From Candidatus Parcubacteria bacterium (GTDB taxonomy: Bacteria > Patescibacteriota > Patescibacteriia > CAIXNZ01), in NCBI GenBank assembly GCA_026395685.1, contig JAPLYG010000016.1, positions 65,035 to 129,034 on the forward strand: DNA of 64,000 nt, given 5' to 3'. Of this stretch, positions 2,717 through 53,700 are shown piece by piece. The notes under the pieces were generated by a model. It saw only the letters and a list, made by a program, of their open reading frames with translations, ran no database searches and was not told the DNA's origin. The position numbers were made by a program, and so were the translations under genes. Within the stretch, counting starts at the first letter, position 1. Each line of letters starts with the position of its first letter.

Positions 2717-3406
2717 TTATTCTGCCGAATCAATTAATTCCTGATAATTCAAGCTGGTATACGGCCAATTTTCCGGCAAGCCGTGTTTGAGGTGGTTATA
2801 CACCGTATAGTTATAACGATTTTCAAAATCTTTTTCAGATACCAGATGGTTTTCATGGAATCTGATAAAGTGGTCGAAAAATGATTTTTGCCAGCGGAAT
2901 TTTGGGTAGGGATTTGTCCCATTGTAAACTGTAACAAACCTAGCTCTTAATTCATTTATCCGTTTTAAAGGATATTCGCCTTCGTCGCCCATTCGTAGGC
3001 GACACAAGCTTGTGTCGCCTACGAATGGCACGCCTACTTGAGATGCGCTAAAACTTTTCGTTAAGTCGCCTACTAATGTAACGTCTGCGCTAGACGCGCC
3101 AAAACTTCCCGTAAAACCTGATGTAATATTTATATTCCTAGAAACATTACGCTTTAAAGATTTTAAGATTTGCGAAATATTAAAGATCTGCCCTGGCGCA
3201 ATTAATAAATTCACGTGATCGTATATAATTGAAAATCCATACAGCTTAAAAGCCTTTAACTTCTTGCAAATATTCAAATCCTCAATAAAGGAATCGCAAA
3301 AAATAGCCTCCTTAAAATACGGATAATTATTATGGGTCTTAATTACGATATAATAAACTGCACCGGGAAAATAAATTCTTTTAAACGAATTTTTATGCAA
3401 TAACAT
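2717..3406 (-). CDS. IS200/IS605-like (REP-associated tyrosine transposase-like) HuH protein with a degenerate HuH motif and an in-frame ~50-codon repeat insertion
   Basis: The N-terminus GAVYYIVIKTHNNYPYF...LYGFSIIYDHVNLLI and C-terminus YNYTVYNHLKHGL match the Y1 HuH transposase fold. The HuH motif reads H-V-N rather than H-u-H. The central segment (VSRNINITSGFTGSFGASSADVTLVGDL...) is encoded by palindromic repeat DNA at 2940-3130. Confidence 0.55.
   Translation of the reverse strand: MLLHKNSFKRIYFPGAVYYIVIKTHNNYPYFKEAIFCDSFIEDLNICKKLKAFKLYGFSIIYDHVNLLIAPGQIFNISQILKSLKRNVSRNINITSGFTGSFGASSADVTLVGDLTKSFSASQVGVPFVGDTSLCRLRMGDEGEYPLKRINELRARFVTVYNGTNPYPKFRWQKSFFDHFIRFHENHLVSEKDFENRYNYTVYNHLKHGLPENWPYTSLNYQELIDSAE
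2940..3130. repeat. Palindrome-rich insertion inside the RAYT-like gene
   Basis: There is a perfect 38-bp palindrome cattcgtaggcgacacaag|cttgtgtcgcctacgaatg at 2990-3027. Several gtaggcgac / gcgctagacgcgcc repeats follow. The reading frame is kept open. Confidence 0.6.
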
Positions 3407-41703: not shown

Positions 41704-42086
41704 GGGGATGATCGGACTCGATAGATCGATCTTTATCTAAGGCTGCAAGCCGAGCTGCTATCATGCTCGATAAACTGTTAGCCACTTTATAAGTGCAAAC
41801 AAATTTTTAAGCGGAGTTAAAGCAGCTTTTGCTTTTAACTTTGCTCCTGTTGCCGCTTAATCGCCGCAACCATCTGGACCTTTAACGCCTGATAAAAGGC
41901 TCCGGGTGTCAAAACATCAGGCTCGCCAAGTAAGGAGCGCCTTTGCCAGCTTGGCCAAAAAATTAAGGCATGATATAAGAATTTTGTCGGGATTAACATC
42001 TTATATTTAAATTTAACCCCGAACAAGCTTGTAGACGCCTGGCCGAAGACTTTCTAGACGCGGGTTCAATTCCCGCCATCTCCACA
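41704..42086 (+). ncRNA. ssrA: tmRNA (SsrA)
   Basis: The 5' end is ggggatgatcggactcgat. The 3' tRNA-like domain has gacgcgggttcaattcccgccatctcc plus a discriminator a; CCA is not encoded. The internal tag ORF ...GVKAAFAFNFAPVAA ends in gcc-gct-taa (AA-stop). It is adjacent to smpB. Confidence 0.8.
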
Positions 42087-42206
42087 TAAATTTTTACTTC
42101 GTAAAAATTTGGGTACTTAGTAGTTTGTACTTTGTATTTTGGGAAGAAGTAAAAATTTATCCTACACTACAAAATACACATACTCACACAAAAATAAAAA
42201 ATATGT

Positions 42207-45943: not shown

Positions 45944-48900
45944 TTATTGAGCAAAGATGTACCCCCAAGCTCTGACAGTTGACCAGGCTAATGGGTTAAC
46001 TGGAGAATGTCCAAACATTTCACGGAATTTAAGAATACCTAATCTTTCTTTAACCAAATCACGGGCAAAACGGATACGATACATCATAGTATTCCAAGCC
46101 AGATCATCCTTGGCATCCTTGAAATTCGGAGCATGGCCAAACATGGTTTTGAAAGTCGCTAACACTCTGCCGACCTGAGCCTGTTCTTTGGCCAGATTCC
46201 TGTAAATCGGTTTGTGGCCGGTTGCCATAAGTTCAATATCAGACCAGACAACATCAGCGCGCACAACTGTTTCAAAATAATCCCTGATAATCGCCCTTCG
46301 TTCACCTGAGCCGAATTTAATCGTTGCTGTAGAATTACCGTAAACAATAAAATTCACAATGGCATCCAGTTGAGCTTCGGTTAAGGTTAAGCCAAATTCC
46401 TTGGCATCAGCCAGTACTAATATCCGGTATCTAGCTTCTTCAGACTGATTTTCAATTAAGCCATAAGTAGCCAATAGAGAAGTTAAATTTGAAGGATCAA
46501 TTATAGTTACTGCCGGAGTTTCAGTCACTACCGGCTCTTCAGTAACAACTGCAACATAATTAATCGTATCGGAAAGTGCAGCAGAGACAGATCCTGTGGA
46601 ATTTTTAAATTTGGCATAGACTGTCTTAGAACCATAATTATCACTTAAGGTCCATGTTTTGGAAGTGGCATAAGTTTCCCAAATACCTCCTGAAAAATCA
46701 GCGTTATTGGAAATTGCCATCTGAACTGCATTGGTAGCGGCTATAGCCAAACTGACAGATTGAGAACTTGTTTGTGTTGCTCCGCCGGCAATAACCAAAG
46801 AAGTTCCGACCGGTAAAGTAGCATCAACAGGAGGTGTGGTGTATCCTCCGCCTCCGCCTCCGCCACTTAACGTTGCTGTAGTAGTGAATGTAGCGCTTAG
46901 GGGAGCAGCCAGAGAATTACCAACTAAATCATCAGCAACAGTAACACTTATTGTATGGGTACTGTTATAAGCATAAGCAGTATGAGTAATTGTAGCAATT
47001 GTATCGGTCGGATCCCAAGATATTCCGGTAGAATTATCTAAGGTGTAAGCAAAAGTGCCGGTATTAACTGGCTCATCAAAAGTAATGACAACATTTGCTG
47101 ACAAAGCAACTCCGGTTGCGCCGTTTGCCGGGCTGAATAAAGCGGTCGGAGCAGTATTATCAGCTCCAAAATCACTGAATCCATCAGTGTCAAAAGTCAA
47201 ATGAGTACCATCCCAAGCATAATTATCCAAAATATGGGTGCCATCATTTATGCCATCACCAGAAGCAGTATTTGACACATAGCCACTTATATTTCCTAAA
47301 TTATCATAAACAACTAAACCTGGCTGGACTCCGCCCGGAACCATGATAGAGATTGATGCCGCGAAATCCAAATCAGCGAGCGCTGCGCTATTAATTCCGA
47401 CATTAGCCGTTCCAGAACCGTCGCTAGCATTGATTGTAATATTGTCTCCAAAATCTATCAAGGCAGTAATCGTCGCAGAATCGGTTAAATTAACATTATT
47501 AATGAAGGTAATGCTTGCCAAATCATTTACTCCGTCATTGGCATTGAAGGTTAAGCTTGGCACATCAGTAAAGTCAGTAATCAATGACCAATCCGTGGTA
47601 TTGCTGGGAGGATTTGCCAATAATGGATCCAAATCAACTGGATTAATGCCGAATACTGCGCCAAAAGAATCTGTGCTACCCGTGCTAAAAGCAACATTTC
47701 CTGATTCATCAACCAAATAAAGATTCATTGCATATCCGCCCGGTAATGTCGGGATACCGAAAGTTGCCACCGGAAGGATAAACTCATATTCATTAGCCCC
47801 TAAATCATTTGTAAAATTTATATAATCAGTACCTGGAACTCCGGTTTCAAAATCATTCGGTCCAACAACTGAACACAAATCAGTCCTGTCATCATTAGCC
47901 AAAGATTGAGTGCAAGCCTTAAGCGCAGAAAGAGGCTGATCAGAAGTTACGCTAAATCTAATGCTTTGGCCGGCATAGTAATACCAATTGTTAGTTACGC
48001 CAACTGGATTGCCTCCGGCTTGTAGCAAGGCCTTGATTTGAGTAATTGCAGGAGCCGTCGTATCAACTGTGACTGAAGATCCTAAAGTACCAGAGGCAAT
48101 AGAAGCGGGATTAAGTGCTGAATCAGTCATATCAATGGTGAAATCAGCCAATGCGGCATCAGTATCAGGAGGCGTGCCCGTAACTGGAGCACAAGCGGTC
48201 CAGATAAGATCCCCTGAAACTGCATCACAGCCTGTTCCATCATCAACCGCTCCAACAACTCCGGCAGCCGGATTGTTGAAATTCACTGTCTGACTCAACA
48301 ATGTTTCACTGGGCGTAAATTCAACTATGACTAGCTTCCCGACGCCAGCTAAGGTAGTATCAAAAGCATTGTCAGAATATACACTATCAAAAGTCAAAAT
48401 CGGCTCTACATTATCTACAGGCGCCGTATCTGTTGAAGTAATGGGACCGGTTGAATTAGGAACGAGAGCATTATCAGTTACAGTCACATCAAAGGTATTT
48501 GTACCCTCATCATCATCTGCTGCTACAAGTAAATCATATGTCCAAAGACCATCACTCGTCGTAACATCGCCATTAGTGCCGTCATCATACATTACTTGAG
48601 CTGGATTACCACCAAATGGGCTTAAATCTGCAATAACAGAAGCAATGTCTCCATTATAACCGGTTGGATTATCACCGGCGCTGGTATTATCCCAAGTAAA
48701 AAGAATATGATCGCCTAATCTGCAGACACCAGCTCCAGTGCAGGTTGATTCATCAGCCATCAAACTTCCGGCATTGACTGTCGGTGCTGTTGTATCTGCT
48801 GTATATCCTGTGAGCTGACCACCCGCACCATCAACTATGGCCGCCATGGGATTTCCAGCCACATCAGTAATGTTGGATAATGTTCCATCTGTAATTGTGA

Positions 48901-50653
48901 CAAAAGAATCAGCAAGCGAAGTATAAAGCCCACCATTAGCTTTTAAGGCATTTAAATCAGCGTCGGATAATGTAAAAACCAGTGTAGCTGGCCCTGTATA
49001 AGCAGCAGTTGAAGTTGCTAACGTTATTGAGGTACCTGCAGTCGCAGCATCCTGTAAAGTAAGCTGGGTTGCATCTACCACCTGCGTTGTATCCATGTTT
49101 TCAATAAATACTACGGTGAGTGTATGCACATTATCATTCATATCAATAACGGCGCTGATTGCCACCGGCGCCACATTATCAATATTGGCAAAATCGGGAA
49201 CAGTGGCTGTCGGAGCGCCTGATTGGGTATTGCCAGCATCGTCAGTTACTGTTTCATTGGCTGAAAAAGCTACATTATCATCATCGTCTGCAATAATTAA
49301 AACTGCACCCGGAGCTTGAGTAGCTGATAAGCCATAAGCTAACAAGTCCACTGTCCAGCTAGCTCCGTCTCCAATTGTTTCTGTACCTATCACATATGTA
49401 ATAGTATCGCCAATTGAAGCTATGCCATCACCACCCACATCAGTCAAGTTTATTGTGCCGGGAACTGTGACAATAGGTATTATATTATCCAATGAAATAG
49501 TTGTAGCATCAATAACATTAGTTGCTGTTGTAACCGCATTACCAGCATCATCAGTGTCTGTAACATTAAAAGCATAAGCTGCGTTATCAACCGCGCCAGG
49601 GGCAACTGTAACTGCCACAGTATTGGCTTGAGTTGCTGAAGCGCCTCCGCCCAAAGGACTTGCATCCCAGGTAATGACATCGGTATCCCCGACAGCACTT
49701 GTGGCATTAACATCGACCGCATCAGCTGCGACTATTCCGCCGTTTACTGCGGCTACACCGCCTACGCCATTATCGGTTGATATTGTTAAGCCTGATGTTG
49801 CCAAGATAGGCATTATATTATCCAATGAAATAGTTGTAGCATCAATAACATTAGTTGCTGTTGTAACCGCATTGCCTGCATTATCAGTGGCCGTAACATT
49901 AAAAGCATAAGCTGCGTTATCAACCGCGCCAGGGGCAACTGTAACTGCCACATTATTGGCTTGAGTTGCTGAAGCGCCACCGCCCAAAGGACTTGCATTC
50001 CAGGTAATGATATCTGTATCCCCTACGGTAACCGTAGCATTAACTTTTACCGCATCAGCTGCGACTATTCCGCCGTTTACTGCGGCTACGGCGGGAACGC
50101 CGTTATCGGTTGATATTGTTAAGCCTGATGTTGCCAAGATAGGAGCGATGGTATCTACAGCACTTGCCATTGAATTTGAATTTGCATTTGGACCTGGTAT
50201 ATCATCTGCATCAGCAGTAACCACATTAACCTGAGAAAGCGCGTTAGCCGCACCAACATCAATACCAGCACCACCAGCATTTGCAACTGGAAAATCAAGT
50301 CTCATTATGTCATGTAACCCTGCATTATCAGTAAGGCAAGACAAAGCAACGGCAGCACCGCCTCCATAGGCTGTTAAATTTGCGGTAGCAGTTGTTACCG
50401 CAGTACAACCGCCATCTGCATTGCTTACATCCAAGTCCACTCTGATCGTATCGCCAATATTAGTAATGCCGTTTACAGGAGAATCTGTTTGAAGAGTAAG
50501 CGTCACGCTAGTGATTGTAATACTTAAAGCTGCTGCTTCAACCTGTTCTTGCGGCAAATTCGTCCAAAAACCGACAGCTAAGCCCAGCATCATCAACCCC
50601 GCCACCGACAATGGCAGGATCCTGAATAATTGTTTTTTAACTTTTTGAGCCAT
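45944..50653 (-). CDS. Giant secreted surface protein (1569 aa) with Ig-like repeats including two near-identical ~110-aa tandem repeats, a Gly7 linker and a distinct C-terminal globular domain
   Basis: The signal/TM is LFRILPLSVAGLMMLGLAVGFW. Repeats ...ILATSGLTISTDNGV..AAVNGGIVAADAV.VNAT... occur twice. SGGGGGGGYTTPP lies near residue 1290. The C-terminal ~200 aa are non-repetitive. Confidence 0.6.
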   Translation of the reverse strand: MAQKVKKQLFRILPLSVAGLMMLGLAVGFWTNLPQEQVEAAALSITITSVTLTLQTDSPVNGITNIGDTIRVDLDVSNADGGCTAVTTATANLTAYGGGAAVALSCLTDNAGLHDIMRLDFPVANAGGAGIDVGAANALSQVNVVTADADDIPGPNANSNSMASAVDTIAPILATSGLTISTDNGVPAVAAVNGGIVAADAVKVNATVTVGDTDIITWNASPLGGGASATQANNVAVTVAPGAVDNAAYAFNVTATDNAGNAVTTATNVIDATTISLDNIMPILATSGLTISTDNGVGGVAAVNGGIVAADAVDVNATSAVGDTDVITWDASPLGGGASATQANTVAVTVAPGAVDNAAYAFNVTDTDDAGNAVTTATNVIDATTISLDNIIPIVTVPGTINLTDVGGDGIASIGDTITYVIGTETIGDGASWTVDLLAYGLSATQAPGAVLIIADDDDNVAFSANETVTDDAGNTQSGAPTATVPDFANIDNVAPVAISAVIDMNDNVHTLTVVFIENMDTTQVVDATQLTLQDAATAGTSITLATSTAAYTGPATLVFTLSDADLNALKANGGLYTSLADSFVTITDGTLSNITDVAGNPMAAIVDGAGGQLTGYTADTTAPTVNAGSLMADESTCTGAGVCRLGDHILFTWDNTSAGDNPTGYNGDIASVIADLSPFGGNPAQVMYDDGTNGDVTTSDGLWTYDLLVAADDDEGTNTFDVTVTDNALVPNSTGPITSTDTAPVDNVEPILTFDSVYSDNAFDTTLAGVGKLVIVEFTPSETLLSQTVNFNNPAAGVVGAVDDGTGCDAVSGDLIWTACAPVTGTPPDTDAALADFTIDMTDSALNPASIASGTLGSSVTVDTTAPAITQIKALLQAGGNPVGVTNNWYYYAGQSIRFSVTSDQPLSALKACTQSLANDDRTDLCSVVGPNDFETGVPGTDYINFTNDLGANEYEFILPVATFGIPTLPGGYAMNLYLVDESGNVAFSTGSTDSFGAVFGINPVDLDPLLANPPSNTTDWSLITDFTDVPSLTFNANDGVNDLASITFINNVNLTDSATITALIDFGDNITINASDGSGTANVGINSAALADLDFAASISIMVPGGVQPGLVVYDNLGNISGYVSNTASGDGINDGTHILDNYAWDGTHLTFDTDGFSDFGADNTAPTALFSPANGATGVALSANVVITFDEPVNTGTFAYTLDNSTGISWDPTDTIATITHTAYAYNSTHTISVTVADDLVGNSLAAPLSATFTTTATLSGGGGGGGYTTPPVDATLPVGTSLVIAGGATQTSSQSVSLAIAATNAVQMAISNNADFSGGIWETYATSKTWTLSDNYGSKTVYAKFKNSTGSVSAALSDTINYVAVVTEEPVVTETPAVTIIDPSNLTSLLATYGLIENQSEEARYRILVLADAKEFGLTLTEAQLDAIVNFIVYGNSTATIKFGSGERRAIIRDYFETVVRADVVWSDIELMATGHKPIYRNLAKEQAQVGRVLATFKTMFGHAPNFKDAKDDLAWNTMMYRIRFARDLVKERLGILKFREMFGHSPVNPLAWSTVRAWGYIFAQ
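49476..50142. repeat. Intragenic tandem duplication (2 x ~333 bp, about 95% identical; degenerate third unit follows)
   Basis: The unit ggcattatattatccaatgaaatagttgtagcatcaataacattagttgctgttgtaaccgcatt... starts at 49476 and again at 49809. Confidence 0.8.
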
Positions 50654-51682: not shown

Positions 51683-51795
51683 CCCAGGACTCCCCTTGCC
51701 AAGGTAATAAAATATTGCTATAATATTCTCACAAGGTCTAAAAACCTTATTTTTAATTTATAAATATTCCTAAGTTTTAACTTTTGAATTAATTT

Positions 51796-51870
51796 GGAGT
51801 GGTAGCTCAGTTTGGTTAGAGCGCCGCCCTGTCACGGCGGAGGTCGCGGGTTCGAGCCCCGTCCACTCCG
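51796..51870 (+). tRNA. tRNA-Asp (GTC)
   Basis: Cloverleaf as follows. Acceptor ggagtgg / ccactcc + g. D-arm gctc-agtttggtt-agagc. Anticodon arm ccgcc-ctGTCac-ggcgg. T-arm gcggg-ttcgagc-cccgt. CCA is not encoded. Confidence 0.9.
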
Positions 51871-52580
51871 AACCAGAAGCACGCAATATCATTTTATTGC
51901 GTGTTTTCGTTTACCCCGTACCGAGCTTCGCTCTGGTACGGGGTTTGGTGAGGCTTCGGTTCGGAGTAGGCCAGTGCCGAACGAACTAGGATATTAAATT
52001 TAAAAATAAACGCCACTCCGAACCAGAAGCACGCAATATCATTTTATTGCGTGTTTTCGTTTACCCCGTACCGAGCTTCGCTCTGGTACGGGGTTTGGTG
52101 AGGCTTCGGTTCGGAGTAGGCCAGTGCCGAACGAACATAGTGAGTTCTGGTTCTGGCCACTCCGTTATTCTTTATCTCTGAGCTCCCTGCTATAATATGT
52201 ATATAATAATTATTATTATAAAATTTATGTACTTTGTTTATTACTTACAAAGCAAAATAAGGCCAACCCAATTTTACGTTGGCTATACAACAAAGTTAGA
52301 TATAAGGATTAGCGACCATAATAAGGGTTTATCCGCTTCAACAAAACCTTATCGACCTTGGGACTTAATTTTTTACGAAGCATATAAAGATAAAAAAGAT
52401 GCCAAAAGGCGTGAAAAGTACTTAAAGACGACCAAAGGACGTAAAGGCTTAAAGTTAATGTTGAGATATTCAATTCCAAAGTAAACGCCAATCCGAACCA
52501 GAAGCACGCAATATCATTTTATTGCGTGTTTTCGTTTACCCCGTACCGAGCTTCGCTCTGGTACGGGGTTTGGCGAGGCT
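51863..52580. repeat. Three copies of a ~125-bp hairpin-rich repeat that begins with the tRNA-Asp 3' end (copies at 51863-51993, 52011-52140, 52488-52580)
   Basis: The unit is ccactccgaaccagaagcacgcaatatcattttattgcgtgttttcgtttaccccgtaccgagcttcgctctggtacggggtttggtgaggcttcggttcggagtaggccagtgccgaacgaac. Copy 1 overlaps the tRNA 3' acceptor strand. Copies 2 and 3 carry cgccac/atccgaacc. Confidence 0.8.
52227..52484 (+). CDS. GIY-YIG nuclease-family protein (YhbQ/UPF0213-like)
   Basis: Reads FYVGYTTKLDIRISDHNKGLSASTKPYRPWDLIFYEAYKDKKDAKRREKYLKTTKGRKGLK, matching the GIY-YIG core. The track start at 52197 is in an A/T run, so ATG 52227 is preferred. Confidence 0.65.
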   Translation: MYFVYYLQSKIRPTQFYVGYTTKLDIRISDHNKGLSASTKPYRPWDLIFYEAYKDKKDAKRREKYLKTTKGRKGLKLMLRYSIPK

Positions 52581-52717
52581 AATGTTGAAATATTCAATAA
52601 TAAAATAAGTCCACTCTGCTCCAACAAAAAGACAATCATTATCGGGTGTTTTCTTGTCTACAACAATTTAAAAAACCCCATTGATGTTATATCTCCGGGG
52701 TTGGTTGTGTCGGGGGA

Positions 52718-53023
52718 TTAGATCCCAAATCGGAGGTCTGAACCCATCTCCTCCAGCTCCTTATTTAAGCTGGGGATGTCGGTCTGCTTCCTCCATTTTT
52801 TCCAGTACGCTCGCTGCTCTTTTTCGGACATCATAAAGAAGTCTGATGGTTTGAGGCAGAAATTTTCTTCCCGCTCTTTGCGTTCCGCGGCTGCCGCTCG
52901 CCTCACATAGTGTTCGATCAACCGAAGCAAGGACACCACGCCCACTGCCTTTAAATAGACCTTTTGCTGGGCAAGTGTCATCTTACTGAACTCAAAAATT
53001 TTCAGAAACGATCCCTTCGCCAT
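52718..53023 (-). CDS. Hypothetical protein in GC-richer islet
   Basis: 101 aa, basic, coiled-coil-like. The local GC is visibly higher than the surrounding genome. Confidence 0.4.
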   Translation of the reverse strand: MAKGSFLKIFEFSKMTLAQQKVYLKAVGVVSLLRLIEHYVRRAAAAERKEREENFCLKPSDFFMMSEKEQRAYWKKWRKQTDIPSLNKELEEMGSDLRFGI

Positions 53024-53180
53024 GGTATCCTCCTTTTTGAAGTGAGAGTAATTACTTTAGTATAAATACTAAAGCAATATTACATTATAGAATAATTATT
53101 TAATTTTGTCAAGCCAATACCGGACTAACAAAAAAAGCCCACTGCGATGCAGGGGCTTGGAATCTCATTTTCTTTAAATC

Positions 53181-53441
53181 TTATTTTGTGATCACGAATT
53201 TTTCTCGGCTTTGGGGCCAATCCTCAATAAAGGCAAAGAATTCTGACAACCGCAGATTAAAGATCTGCGCAAAGACAATCAGCTCGCTGATCTGCTGGGG
53301 CGAACCATACAGCTCCAGCATATAGATATCGTGCTCAGTCTTCTTCAGCTTTTCTGCCAGTTCAGCCATTGACCAGTTCTGCTGTTTCCTGAGGAATTTG
53401 ATGACCTGACGGACTTTCTTATTGTATTCGCAGAGCTCCAT
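53181..53441 (-). CDS. XRE-family (Cro/C1-type) helix-turn-helix transcriptional regulator
   Basis: Shows QNWSMAELAEKLKKTEHDIYMLELYGSPQQISELIVFAQIFNLRLSEFF. It is GC-richer than the flanks. Confidence 0.55.
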   Translation of the reverse strand: MELCEYNKKVRQVIKFLRKQQNWSMAELAEKLKKTEHDIYMLELYGSPQQISELIVFAQIFNLRLSEFFAFIEDWPQSREKFVITK

Positions 53442-53555
53442 CGCTGTCTCCCTTCTTTCATTGAAACTTTGATACCAGCCTTTTAAATTATCACATTATG
53501 TTTAAAATGTCAATTGCCGCAAAAAGCACCCGATCTCTCAGGTGCCACCCTATTA

Positions 53556-53700
53556 ATCACCAAGCTTCAATAACCAATATTCAAACAAATTTTAAATTCT
53601 AATACCAAATTACTAAAAAAAATTAGGGTTTTGGAATTAGTTATTTATTATTGTTTGATGCTTGATTCTTGGTTATTGATTATTCATTCAGCATCTTAAT
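53556..53700. repeat. Family-A intergenic palindromic element (copy A4), right arm overlapping the last codons of pgi
   Basis: Reads caataaccaatattcaaacaaattttaaattctaataccaaattactaaaaaaaattagggttttggaattagttatttattattgtttgatgcttgattcttggttattgattatt. Confidence 0.6.

Follow-up and report, generated by a model that had tools for sequence, protein, structure and literature searches.

A putative selfish GIY-YIG nuclease cassette set at tRNA gene ends in CPR/Patescibacteria

Phage T4 encodes a GIY-YIG nuclease, SegB, that recognises, in DNA, a tRNA T-psi-C motif and drives the inheritance of its own gene along with that of neighbouring tRNA genes (PMC2330249). In the candidate phyla radiation (CPR), rRNA genes carry GIY-YIG-encoding insertions that are neither group I nor group II introns (PMC11270868). 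These are the nearest reports to the locus described here, in which a GIY-YIG gene and a double palindrome stand directly behind a tRNA-Asp gene in 64,000 nt of a Candidatus Parcubacteria contig (JAPLYG010000016.1, positions 65,035 to 129,034, assembly GCA_026395685.1), the whole of which we call the window. Comparison with 80 homologous GIY-YIG loci from species-representative genomes (L numbers denote loci; tRNAs were called with ARAGORN) revealed a cassette family that is widespread in CPR/Patescibacteria and set exactly after the tRNA discriminator base, in the orientation of the tRNA. We consider it somewhat better than an even bet (roughly 55%) that this is a selfish nuclease cassette targeting tRNA ends, and that the array in the window was built by repeated insertion or by unequal recombination, with gene conversion homogenising its copies.

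We found no description of tRNA-linked GIY-YIG cassettes in the searchable full-text literature. SegB shares with the cassette a free-standing GIY-YIG nuclease gene lodged among tRNA genes (PMC2330249), while the CPR rRNA insertions share the organisms, the protein superfamily and a position in or at structured-RNA genes; they lie inside rRNA genes, however, and no tRNA linkage or palindromic doublet has been described for them (PMC11270868). Unlike SegB, the cassette has a conserved palindromic doublet abutting the tRNA end, is cellular (CPR) rather than phage-borne and encodes a bare 85-aa catalytic domain from another branch (Slx1/HIGLE/UPF0213, with weak likeness to I-TevI). SegB itself has about 220 aa and includes a DNA-binding part.

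The features of the locus are listed below, P1 being the closing stem of the repeat unit, P2 the hairpin that follows it and E1 to E3 the three cassettes that we propose (ORF, open reading frame).

51696-51724, plus strand: promoter-like site of tRNA-Asp (TTGCCA, 17-nt spacer, TATAAT, with TG), 11/12 positions matching
51796-51870, plus strand: tRNA-Asp(GTC) (ARAGORN; Rfam RF00005, 69 bits)
51863-51986, plus strand: repeat copy 1 (repeat finder), putative proximal cassette E3 with an internal deletion; P1 5' arm 51865-51880, hairpin 1 51880-51903 and then a T-run, hairpin 2 51914-51943, P1 3' arm 51953-51967 and, of P2, only the 5' arm, 51969-51986
51990-52012, plus strand: remnant of the GIY-YIG ORF 3' end (GATATTAAATTTAAAAATAAACG), 19/23 positions as in the intact ORF end (83%)
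52013-52164, plus strand: leader of the putative intact cassette E2, with homologous P1-P2 units in ~35 loci; tRNA-end copy CCACTCCG 52013-52020, P1 5' arm 52015-52030 and 3' arm 52103-52117 with hairpins 1 and 2 in the loop, complete P2 hairpin 52119-52158, tRNA-end copy CCACTCCG 52157-52164
52188-52196, plus strand: promoter-like motif of the extended -10 type, TGCTATAAT, with 31 nt between it and the ATG
52227-52484, plus strand: GIY-YIG nuclease gene (85 aa), UPF0213/Slx1-like branch, catalytic residues kept
52488-52580, plus strand: repeat copy 3, putative distal cassette E1 with an internal deletion, cut off within the P1 3' arm; tRNA-end copy CCAATCCG 52488-52495, then P1 5' arm, hairpin 1 and hairpin 2
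52580-52608, plus strand: second remnant of the GIY-YIG 3' end, 83% identity, stop codon kept
52611-52618, plus strand: tRNA-end copy CCACTCTG, distal edge of the array

The triplicated unit that a first-pass annotation, made from the sequence alone, had noticed here is indeed present, with a length of 124 nt. Copies 1 and 2 are identical (51863-51986 and 52013-52136, 124/124), and the third (repeat-finder span 52488-52611) is 98.9% identical over its first 89 nt and divergent beyond. Core motifs of the unit (n = 2, 20-34 nt) occurred at only these three places in 64 kb, with 0 expected by chance. The acceptor stem of tRNA-Asp is GGAGTGG/CCACTCC plus discriminator G, with CCA not encoded, and the 8-mer CCACTCCG corresponds to the end of the acceptor 3' strand and the discriminator base. 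As annotated, copy 1 begins inside this strand (51863) and tRNA ends are duplicated in copies 2 and 3: exact copies of the 8-mer were found at 51863, 52013 and 52157 only in the whole window, and one-mismatch copies at 52488 (CCAATCCG) and 52611 (CCACTCTG) bring the direct copies to five. Two inverted copies lie at 51962-51969 and 52112-52119.

Folding of the unit gave a closing stem, P1, with two hairpins in its loop (dG, folding free energy, -62.5 kcal/mol; z -6.8), and inclusion of P2 strengthened the fold (dG -80.9, z -8.7); the unit folds in the same way as DNA. The P1 stem of the window is ACUCCGAACC-A-GAAGC / GCUUC-GGUUCGGAGU, with six nucleotides supplied by the tRNA itself. Hairpin 1 is followed by UUUUCGUUU and occupies the same place as the terminator-like hairpins of homologous cassettes (L008, L009, L027), in keeping with its proposed role as the tRNA terminator; hairpin 2 is CCCCGUACCGAGC/GCUCUGGUACGGGG. 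In copy 2, the stem that closes P2 is GGAGU(A)GG...CCACUCC, which replicates the acceptor stem of tRNA-Asp. The inverted end that had made copy 2 look like a miniature inverted-repeat transposable element (MITE), GAACCAGAA ... TTCTGGTTC and then CCACTCCG, was recovered, its TTCTGGTTC side being the 3' arm of P2. These two sequences bracket the P1-P2 block between two CCACTCCG copies and leave the ORF outside, whereas in a sister clade of the protein inverted repeats of 18-24 nt surround the ORF. Rfam 15 at gathering scores returned tRNA and tmRNA only, so that the repeat unit matched no described RNA family, and a search of 51700-52700 at E up to 10 gave nothing credible for it. The tRNA-Asp of one relative, L009, also has a homologous promoter upstream.

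Hairpin 2 (CCCCGTACCGAGC-TTC-GCTCTGGTACGGGG; window 51914-51943, 52064-52093 and 52539-52568) has relatives downstream of the GIY-YIG ORF elsewhere, namely at L017:3272-3301, at +20 to +57 after the stop codon in L018 (followed by a 13-nt copy of the tRNA-Asp end), in L028 and downstream of the stop codon in L031. A pattern search for CCCCGTAC...GGGG across the loci retrieved L017 only; the looser relatives in L018, L028 and L031 were recognised by eye. To judge by its sequence, hairpin 2 looks like a further P2-type module able to sit on either side of the ORF.

The last 23-29 nt of the intact ORF recur with 83% identity both after copy 3 (52580-52608), as annotated, and before copy 2 (51990-52012), which had been overlooked. 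Because each remnant is trailed by a tRNA-end copy, the repeating module is [P1 with inserts, P2, promoter, ORF, tRNA-end copy] rather than the 125-bp unit that had been taken for it. The stretch 51863-52618 would then be a tandem array, an interpretation that we narrowly prefer, in which E2 is intact while E3 on the tRNA side and E1 at the distal end are internally deleted and have lost most of the nuclease gene. Perfect identity of copies 1 and 2 over 124 nt, in a contig from a metagenome-assembled genome (MAG), is also what a purely local tandem duplication of the tRNA terminator region, or an assembly artefact, would produce without any mobile-element biology. A recent duplication, however, would have copied the flanks equally, yet the ORF remnants match at only 83%. 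This difference from the adjoining units (100% and 98.9%) indicates older, separately decayed cassettes with homogenised palindromes rather than one recent duplication. Comparable arrays occur in independent MAGs, with tandem P1-P2 units in L028 (five units), L048, L041, L083, L075, L014 and L025, and the element is conserved far beyond this genome, which leaves local duplication or artefact an improbable account.

Linkage to tRNA genes extends well beyond the window. Of the 77 loci whose upstream sequence was long enough, 31 had a same-strand tRNA ending 44-400 nt ahead of the ORF, compared with 1.5 expected from the tRNA density elsewhere in the same loci (P~2e-32), and all 13 of the closest homologues were tRNA-linked. 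Within 450 nt upstream we counted 38 same-strand and 2 opposite-strand tRNAs. Ten tRNA species were represented: Asp (the commonest), Ser (three anticodons), Arg, Trp, Met, Leu, Ala, Lys, Gln and Glu. P1 stood at offset 0 after the discriminator, and paired through that base, behind 24/38 GIY-linked tRNAs but only 5/51 others in these loci (discriminator positions are inferred, with an accuracy of +/-1 nt), which argues that the hairpin is not a general tRNA trailer. Those five comprised three ORF-less modules or MITE-like palindromes, one P1 before the second GIY cassette of L021 and one A-run artefact; since loci were picked for carrying the ORF, ORF-less modules are under-sampled.

Two additional linked loci (L022, L023) have a tRNA-Asp that ARAGORN missed because of an intron. 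The anticodon loop is interrupted by ~100 nt in L022 (2752-2928) and ~245 nt in L023 (2570-2880), the insert holds AGATATAGTCC, reminiscent of a group I intron core, and the tRNA gene stands between an immediately upstream ORF with a LAGLIDADG-like motif (GYFDGDG) and an immediately downstream GIY cassette. Judged on these motifs, three kinds of putative selfish element meet at one tRNA gene.

Such recurrence bears on the first-pass proposal that the region is the remnant of a classic tRNA-targeting integrative element, in which repeated integration and excision at the tRNA-Asp 3' end left the tRNA-end repeats as attachment (att) sites, with the GIY-YIG gene and a downstream islet as cargo. 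In favour of that history are the five direct tRNA 3'-end copies, the foreign composition of the islet downstream and a gene content that varies between the same flanks in L009. However, dozens of CPR genomes show the same unit of tRNA, palindromes and GIY-YIG gene, at ten tRNA species, so that gene and repeat make up a single cassette and not cargo with its att sites. The repeat units measure only 0.15-0.5 kb and lie 150-475 nt apart. No tyrosine or serine recombinase was found among the ORFs between 43.9 and 60 kb (~8 kb either way), as the annotation itself had noted, none of the inspected gene tables of tRNA-linked homologous loci contained a recombinase, and no DDE, HUH or serine transposase is present at the locus. 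The islet could stem from an unrelated integration, and no att-like repeat marks its right edge. We therefore regard an integrase-driven element as very unlikely here. The cassette does resemble integrase islands and MITEs at tRNA 3' ends in that the gene is restored, a direct copy of its end is displaced and terminal sequences are inverted, but it has neither integrase nor DDE transposase, is far smaller and has a duplication of 5-21 nt.

Across tRNA-linked loci the leader follows a common layout: the discriminator, CC(C/A)NGAACC-A-GAAC, a loop and GTTC-GGTTCNGG(G/T), which together form P1, then one or two bases, P2 with an extra T in its 3' arm (GTTC-T-GGTTC) and, once more, N-CC(C/A). From 14 short leaders we derived a covariance model, which placed the unit directly upstream of the ORF in ~35 loci and found one ORF-less copy behind another tRNA (L053) and a further weak match in L013. 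In the 14-sequence alignment, P1, P2 and the acceptor-mimicking stem were 97% paired with 16 pairs changed on both sides, which 0/500 shuffles matched. The P1 extension paired with the tRNA tail in 99.5% of cells and covaried with tRNA identity. Arm a (GAACCAGAAC) is perfectly complementary to arm d (GTTCTGGTTC), and the bulged base is missing from both b and c. The a:d/b:c pairing was satisfied at 89.5%, and the covariance model fits the minus strand as well. P2 thus amounts to the P1 module inverted, and an alternative, riboswitch-like fold that we had considered for the a:d/b:c pairing is not needed to account for it. All four arms share one sequence variant within a genome (GAAGTAGAAC versus GAACCAGAAC).

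By its sequence, the P1-P2 unit resembles a doublet of the kind formed by repetitive extragenic palindromic (REP) sequences in REPINs and bacterial interspersed mosaic elements (BIMEs). Like REP/BIME (REPIN)-RAYT systems, the cassette combines imperfect palindromes, an orientation-defining bulge and inverted doublets beside a small nuclease gene, and its repeats are homogenised within a genome. It differs in that the enzyme is GIY-YIG rather than an HUH/Y1 transposase, copies are not dispersed in hundreds, and the palindromes are confined to the 5' side of the nuclease gene at tRNA ends.

We rejected the idea that the stem flanking P2 is a long, tRNA-derived acceptor mimic that tracks each tRNA, which the discriminator positions ruled against. 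In most short forms the discriminator alone is tRNA-derived, and the next CC(A/C), at the CCA position, represents the first P1 bases; only the lineage of the window and L009 has the 8-nt acceptor copy. In L021, tandem cassettes behind tRNA-Met and tRNA-Asp have leaders that differ at 4/67 positions and ORFs that are 67% identical, and the differing leader positions follow the discriminator (A or G) and its complement. A sub-family (window, L001, L008, L009, L031) has a terminator-like hairpin in the P1 loop and a loop insert in P2, conserves TG(C/A)TATAATAT ~30 nt before the ATG and loses similarity at the stop codon. Within it, the non-coding b-c-d block is 73-83% identical compared with 44-59% at ORF third positions, so sequence as well as pairing is constrained.

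Some of this constraint could be explained at the RNA level, without mobility, by a vertically inherited GIY-YIG gene that is expressed as a tRNA 3' trailer behind a structured P1-P2 leader, the triplication in the window being local slippage. P1 would give the mRNA freed by RNase Z/RNase P a paired 5' end, and the acceptor-like stem around P2 with N-CC(A/C) would be a second processing signal that yields a nearly leaderless mRNA. The tRNA and ORF are co-oriented throughout; leaders can be too short for a promoter (44 nt in L033; 69-76 nt in L015, L018 and L021); the ATG stands 4-8 nt after P2 with no Shine-Dalgarno sequence in L018, L021, L022 and L024; the stem pairs and covaries with the discriminator and CCA-position bases; and G.U pairs outnumber A.C mismatches on the sense strand (37 versus 13), which also folds slightly better (p = 0.003). 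Against this, the window-type sub-family has a terminator-like hairpin in the P1 loop and its own promoter and yet conserves the P1 3' arm and P2, a simple RNA leader would not need arms that share one variant per genome or a P2 that is P1 inverted, and filled and empty sites, decayed copies, arrays and a sister clade with flanking inverted repeats point to mobility. We consider the RNA-level account on its own rather unlikely, if less so than an integrase element or an artefact, but it is compatible with a selfish cassette as an added layer. Because short forms leave no room for a promoter, place the ATG near P2 without a Shine-Dalgarno sequence and show the G.U excess, such a layer is likely, in which P1 would give the released trailer mRNA a fully paired 5' end.

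Filled and empty sites were found at a conserved locus. Using the ComF gene beside the L003 cassette as an anchor, we recovered four syntenic loci (L092-L095) with the order TraG, a 214-aa gene, ComF, tRNA-Ser(TGA), tRNA-Ser(GCT), a ~170-aa gene, tRNA-Arg and RecG. The spacer between the two tRNA-Ser genes carries a GIY cassette in L002-L007 and L033 but not in L092-L094; in L093 and L094 it is an 83-nt AT-rich sequence with neither P1-P2 nor ORF, and in L092 it holds an unrelated hairpin. Arm a is therefore part of the insert and not of the tRNA trailer. Presence/absence polymorphism at a conserved syntenic site, as looked for in homing genes, was thus observed in this family, at a tRNA-Ser site. 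In L095 (3330-3680, minus strand) an ORF-less, ~100-nt AT-rich palindrome starts from the end of each tRNA-Ser (CCCGATAAAAGT...ACTTTTATCGGG and CCAGATGCAAGT...ACTTGCATCTGG) and is followed by a direct CTCCG copy. These palindromes, which recall tRNA-end MITEs, are apparently a second, unrelated MITE-like family at the same insertion point.

In a neighbour-joining tree of the proteins, all tRNA-linked genes fell into one clade in which tRNA identities were intermixed, with Asp-Arg, Asp-Ser, Trp-Ser and Met-Asp sisters. Copies of the tRNA 3' part occur beyond the ORF in L018, L040, L047 and L075 (11-21 nt) and between the tRNA and P1 in L017 and L031 (15-19 nt). The tRNA-Asp site of the window is itself variable, as the annotation had proposed. 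L009, whose GIY-YIG protein is 85% identical, has the same genes on its flanks, for histidine phosphatase (56%) and PGI (78% over the part covered), but its tRNA-GIY block is inverted relative to these flanks and the other intervening genes differ, so the interval is variable in both genomes. Separately, L009 has a 13-nt duplicate of the tRNA-Asp 5' end (GGAGCGGTAGCTC) ~78 nt upstream start to start (~65 nt between copies; L009:2668-2760), followed by a hairpin (CCCGCCTTCGCTAAAGCTATGGCGGGC), as though a small insertion had entered the tRNA gene in its 5' part and restored it.

The window ORF matched the Pfam GIY-YIG family (PF01541, 60.2 bits versus a cut-off of 22.6, E 2.5e-16). Its product has the same sequence (100% identity) as a GIY-YIG protein from a Candidatus Parcubacteria MAG, an exact-protein look-up returned no record, and homologues are almost exclusively from CPR/Patescibacteria. 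Catalytic residues are well kept among 43 sequences, with Y5, G19, R27, H31 and E63 invariant and Y17 and N32 at least 90% conserved. The nearest solved structures by sequence are the UPF0213 proteins BH0048 and EF2693 (PDB 1zg2, 1ywl). An AlphaFold model (pLDDT, the predicted local distance difference test score, 95.6) had as top Foldseek matches 1zg2 (BH0048), 7wme (the catalytic domain of At-HIGLE), 6seh and 7cq3 (Slx1), each with probability 1.00, whereas I-TevI and UvrC scored below 0.2. Fold and catalytic residues thus place the protein with the structure-specific Slx1/HIGLE/UPF0213 nucleases, which supplied the best matches, far more than with I-TevI.

Slx1 and HIGLE are structure-specific nucleases that cut Holliday junctions, flaps and stem-loops, so the cruciform-capable palindromes that invariably stand beside the gene would be a natural candidate substrate. 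The cassette protein shares with Slx1, At-HIGLE and UPF0213 (YhbQ-like) proteins the best sequence and fold matches (1zg2, 1ywl, 7wme, 6seh, 7cq3) and the same catalytic residues; unlike Slx1, it has neither an Slx4-like partner nor a RING/PHD domain. No link of UPF0213 to tRNA ends or palindromic repeats was found in the searchable literature.

A sister clade encodes the same GIY-YIG protein at 50-60% identity with no tRNA nearby (ORF at ~3001-3240 in most; L034, L042, L049, L051, L052, L056, L059, L063, L064, L068, L069, L071, L073, L074, L076, L081, L084, L087 and L088, and further L026, L029, L036, L046, L062 and L086). Here inverted repeats of 18-24 nt flank the ORF (CCCCGTAGTAGAATTTCCAA ... 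TTGGAAATTTCACTACGGGG), and the element lies at a host start codon with a direct repeat of 4-6 nt, which is TATG in at least 10 different host genes and otherwise ATGGA(T), or, in L073, TAA. From the upstream ATG runs a mini-ORF whose end adjoins the GIY ATG. The repeat arms and the P1 arms of tRNA-linked cassettes are homologous, and the bulged A beside GAA/TTC is shared as well. Judged by these sequences, the sister clade looks like a transposon. An inverted repeat scoring at least 12 was present at 20/48 non-tRNA loci but at 0/30 tRNA-linked loci (scanned over 70 nt on either side of the tRNA-linked ORFs), so this transposon-like picture is not simply transferable to the tRNA-linked clade. 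Six or more hairpins of the CCCTGTAGTAGAAGC...GCTTCACTACAGGG type are arrayed directly upstream of the GIY-YIG ORF in L061 (2760-2990), and extra ORF-less hairpins of this type occur in L055, L059 and L044.

A broader and more tentative proposal, which we hold to be distinctly less probable than the selfish cassette itself, is that Slx1-like mini GIY-YIG nucleases and their cognate bulged palindromes form an unrecognised class of prokaryotic mobile element that inserts at exact gene boundaries with short target duplications. One clade would sit after the tRNA discriminator base; a second, its ORF enclosed by ~20-nt inverted repeats, would sit at T|ATG start codons. Genes for rRNA may hold related insertions, and the host gene would stay functional throughout. 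In the role of a transposase, the nuclease would work directly on the DNA of the hairpin or cruciform. Elements of the IS200/IS605 type offer a partial parallel, with hairpin-forming ends on one strand and insertion immediately 3' of a short specific sequence, a related sequence standing at the other end. In contrast to these elements, which depend on a Y1 HUH transposase, the cassette has both hairpins on one side of the ORF.

As a selfish element, the tRNA-linked cassette would have four parts: a palindromic doublet, in which the outer stem of P1 pairs with the last nucleotides of the tRNA and P2 is closed by a tRNA-end copy; in this sub-lineage, a putative extended -10 promoter of its own and, within the P1 loop, a terminator-like hairpin for the tRNA; the 85-aa stand-alone GIY-YIG nuclease; and, directly behind the stop codon, one more copy of the tRNA 3' end. 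The predicted structure-specific nuclease may cut branched or hairpin DNA at the junction of tRNA end and palindrome, or a cassette-free tRNA end. Repair from a cassette-bearing copy, through short tRNA-end homology at both ends, would then copy the cassette in and duplicate the tRNA end. The duplicated tRNA end measures 8 nt in the window and 5-21 nt elsewhere, a variable length that fits repair or homology better than a fixed-stagger transposase. Repeated insertion at one tRNA end, or unequal recombination between tRNA-end repeats, could build tandem arrays in which redundant nuclease genes would decay, and gene conversion from arm to arm and copy to copy may keep the arms matched to each other and to the selected tRNA. 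Insertion exactly at the gene boundary would spare the tRNA, and in short forms the ORF would ride on the tRNA transcript.

Several observations weigh against this interpretation. The 85-aa length is catalytic domain throughout, with no separate DNA-binding module of the kind expected of a homing endonuclease. No cassette-free allele of the window's tRNA-Asp locus was found in this poorly sampled lineage, and a metagenome scan with the upstream histidine phosphatase retrieved three relatives on short contigs, none of which reached the tRNA. The Asp cluster of sister genes in the tree and the recurrent Met-Met-Asp context fit vertical inheritance as well as homing. Most short-form cassettes have no tRNA-end copy of at least 8 nt after the ORF, so that neither the right-hand boundary nor any target duplication can be generalised. 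The P1-P2 palindromes do not include the ORF, their copies are not dispersed and occur within 64 kb at this locus only, and the sense-strand bias described above suggests that part of the constraint may act on RNA.

Downstream of the array, the annotation had marked a GC-richer islet, whose features are as follows (HTH, helix-turn-helix; GC3, GC content at third codon positions).

52718-53023, minus strand: orf101, an ORFan with GC3 0.627, assigned to the foreign islet and not to the GIY cassette
53084-53112, minus strand: sigma-70 consensus promoter of orf101, 12/12 positions
53138-53153, minus strand: terminator-like hairpin
53181-53441, minus strand: HTH protein, 86 aa, XRE-like below Pfam cut-off, GC3 0.621

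Compositional distinctness held at third codon positions, where the two genes (0.62-0.63) lie far above the 41 other ORFs (0.374 +/- 0.042; z about 6), indicating that they are foreign; it was less clear in plain GC, because 46-52 kb also reaches 0.42-0.46. The HTH protein matched XRE-type models, all below curated cut-offs. For orf101, a word-indexed search and a full HMMER search of 1.84 billion representative proteins found no homologue, and Pfam, NCBIfam, PHROGs and PADLOC gave no match. The suggested pairing of the HTH gene with orf101 as a type II toxin-antitoxin system found no support, as orf101 has no family or homologue and the two genes are separated by the terminator-like hairpin and the 12/12 promoter. 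We saw no evidence that the islet is part of the GIY cassette.

The flanking genes encode histidine phosphatase, PGI, Lgt, PPDK and cyclophilin. A 21-nt inverted repeat (53567-53587/53659-53679; 86% complementary, arms 71 nt apart) sits at 53567-53679 in the AT-rich spacer between the islet and the PGI stop codon and could represent either a terminator or the border of the islet. Immediately before the locus, 45944-50653 encodes a putative surface protein of 1569 aa that is repeat-rich and rich in Ala, Thr and Asp, with a higher GC of 0.44, and the window also contains a tmRNA (41704-42087) with the tag peptide AATIWTFNA.

GIY-YIG proteins of the UPF0213/YhbQ type are very common, have no established function and are kept in several copies even by tiny CPR genomes. 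The locus ties this family to a precise address, the tRNA 3' end or, in the sister clade, the start codon, and to a palindromic DNA or RNA partner, which together give it a testable role as a selfish, structure-specific nuclease cassette. Such a role would account for the recurrent 'hypothetical nuclease' genes beside tRNAs in CPR bins, for small tandem repeats that break assemblies at tRNA genes and for part of the unusual insertion load in CPR stable-RNA genes. Should the cassette owe its mobility to hairpin or cruciform cutting by the nuclease, this would be a mechanism absent from the known insertion sequence families, carried out by a very small enzyme on a defined, structured substrate.

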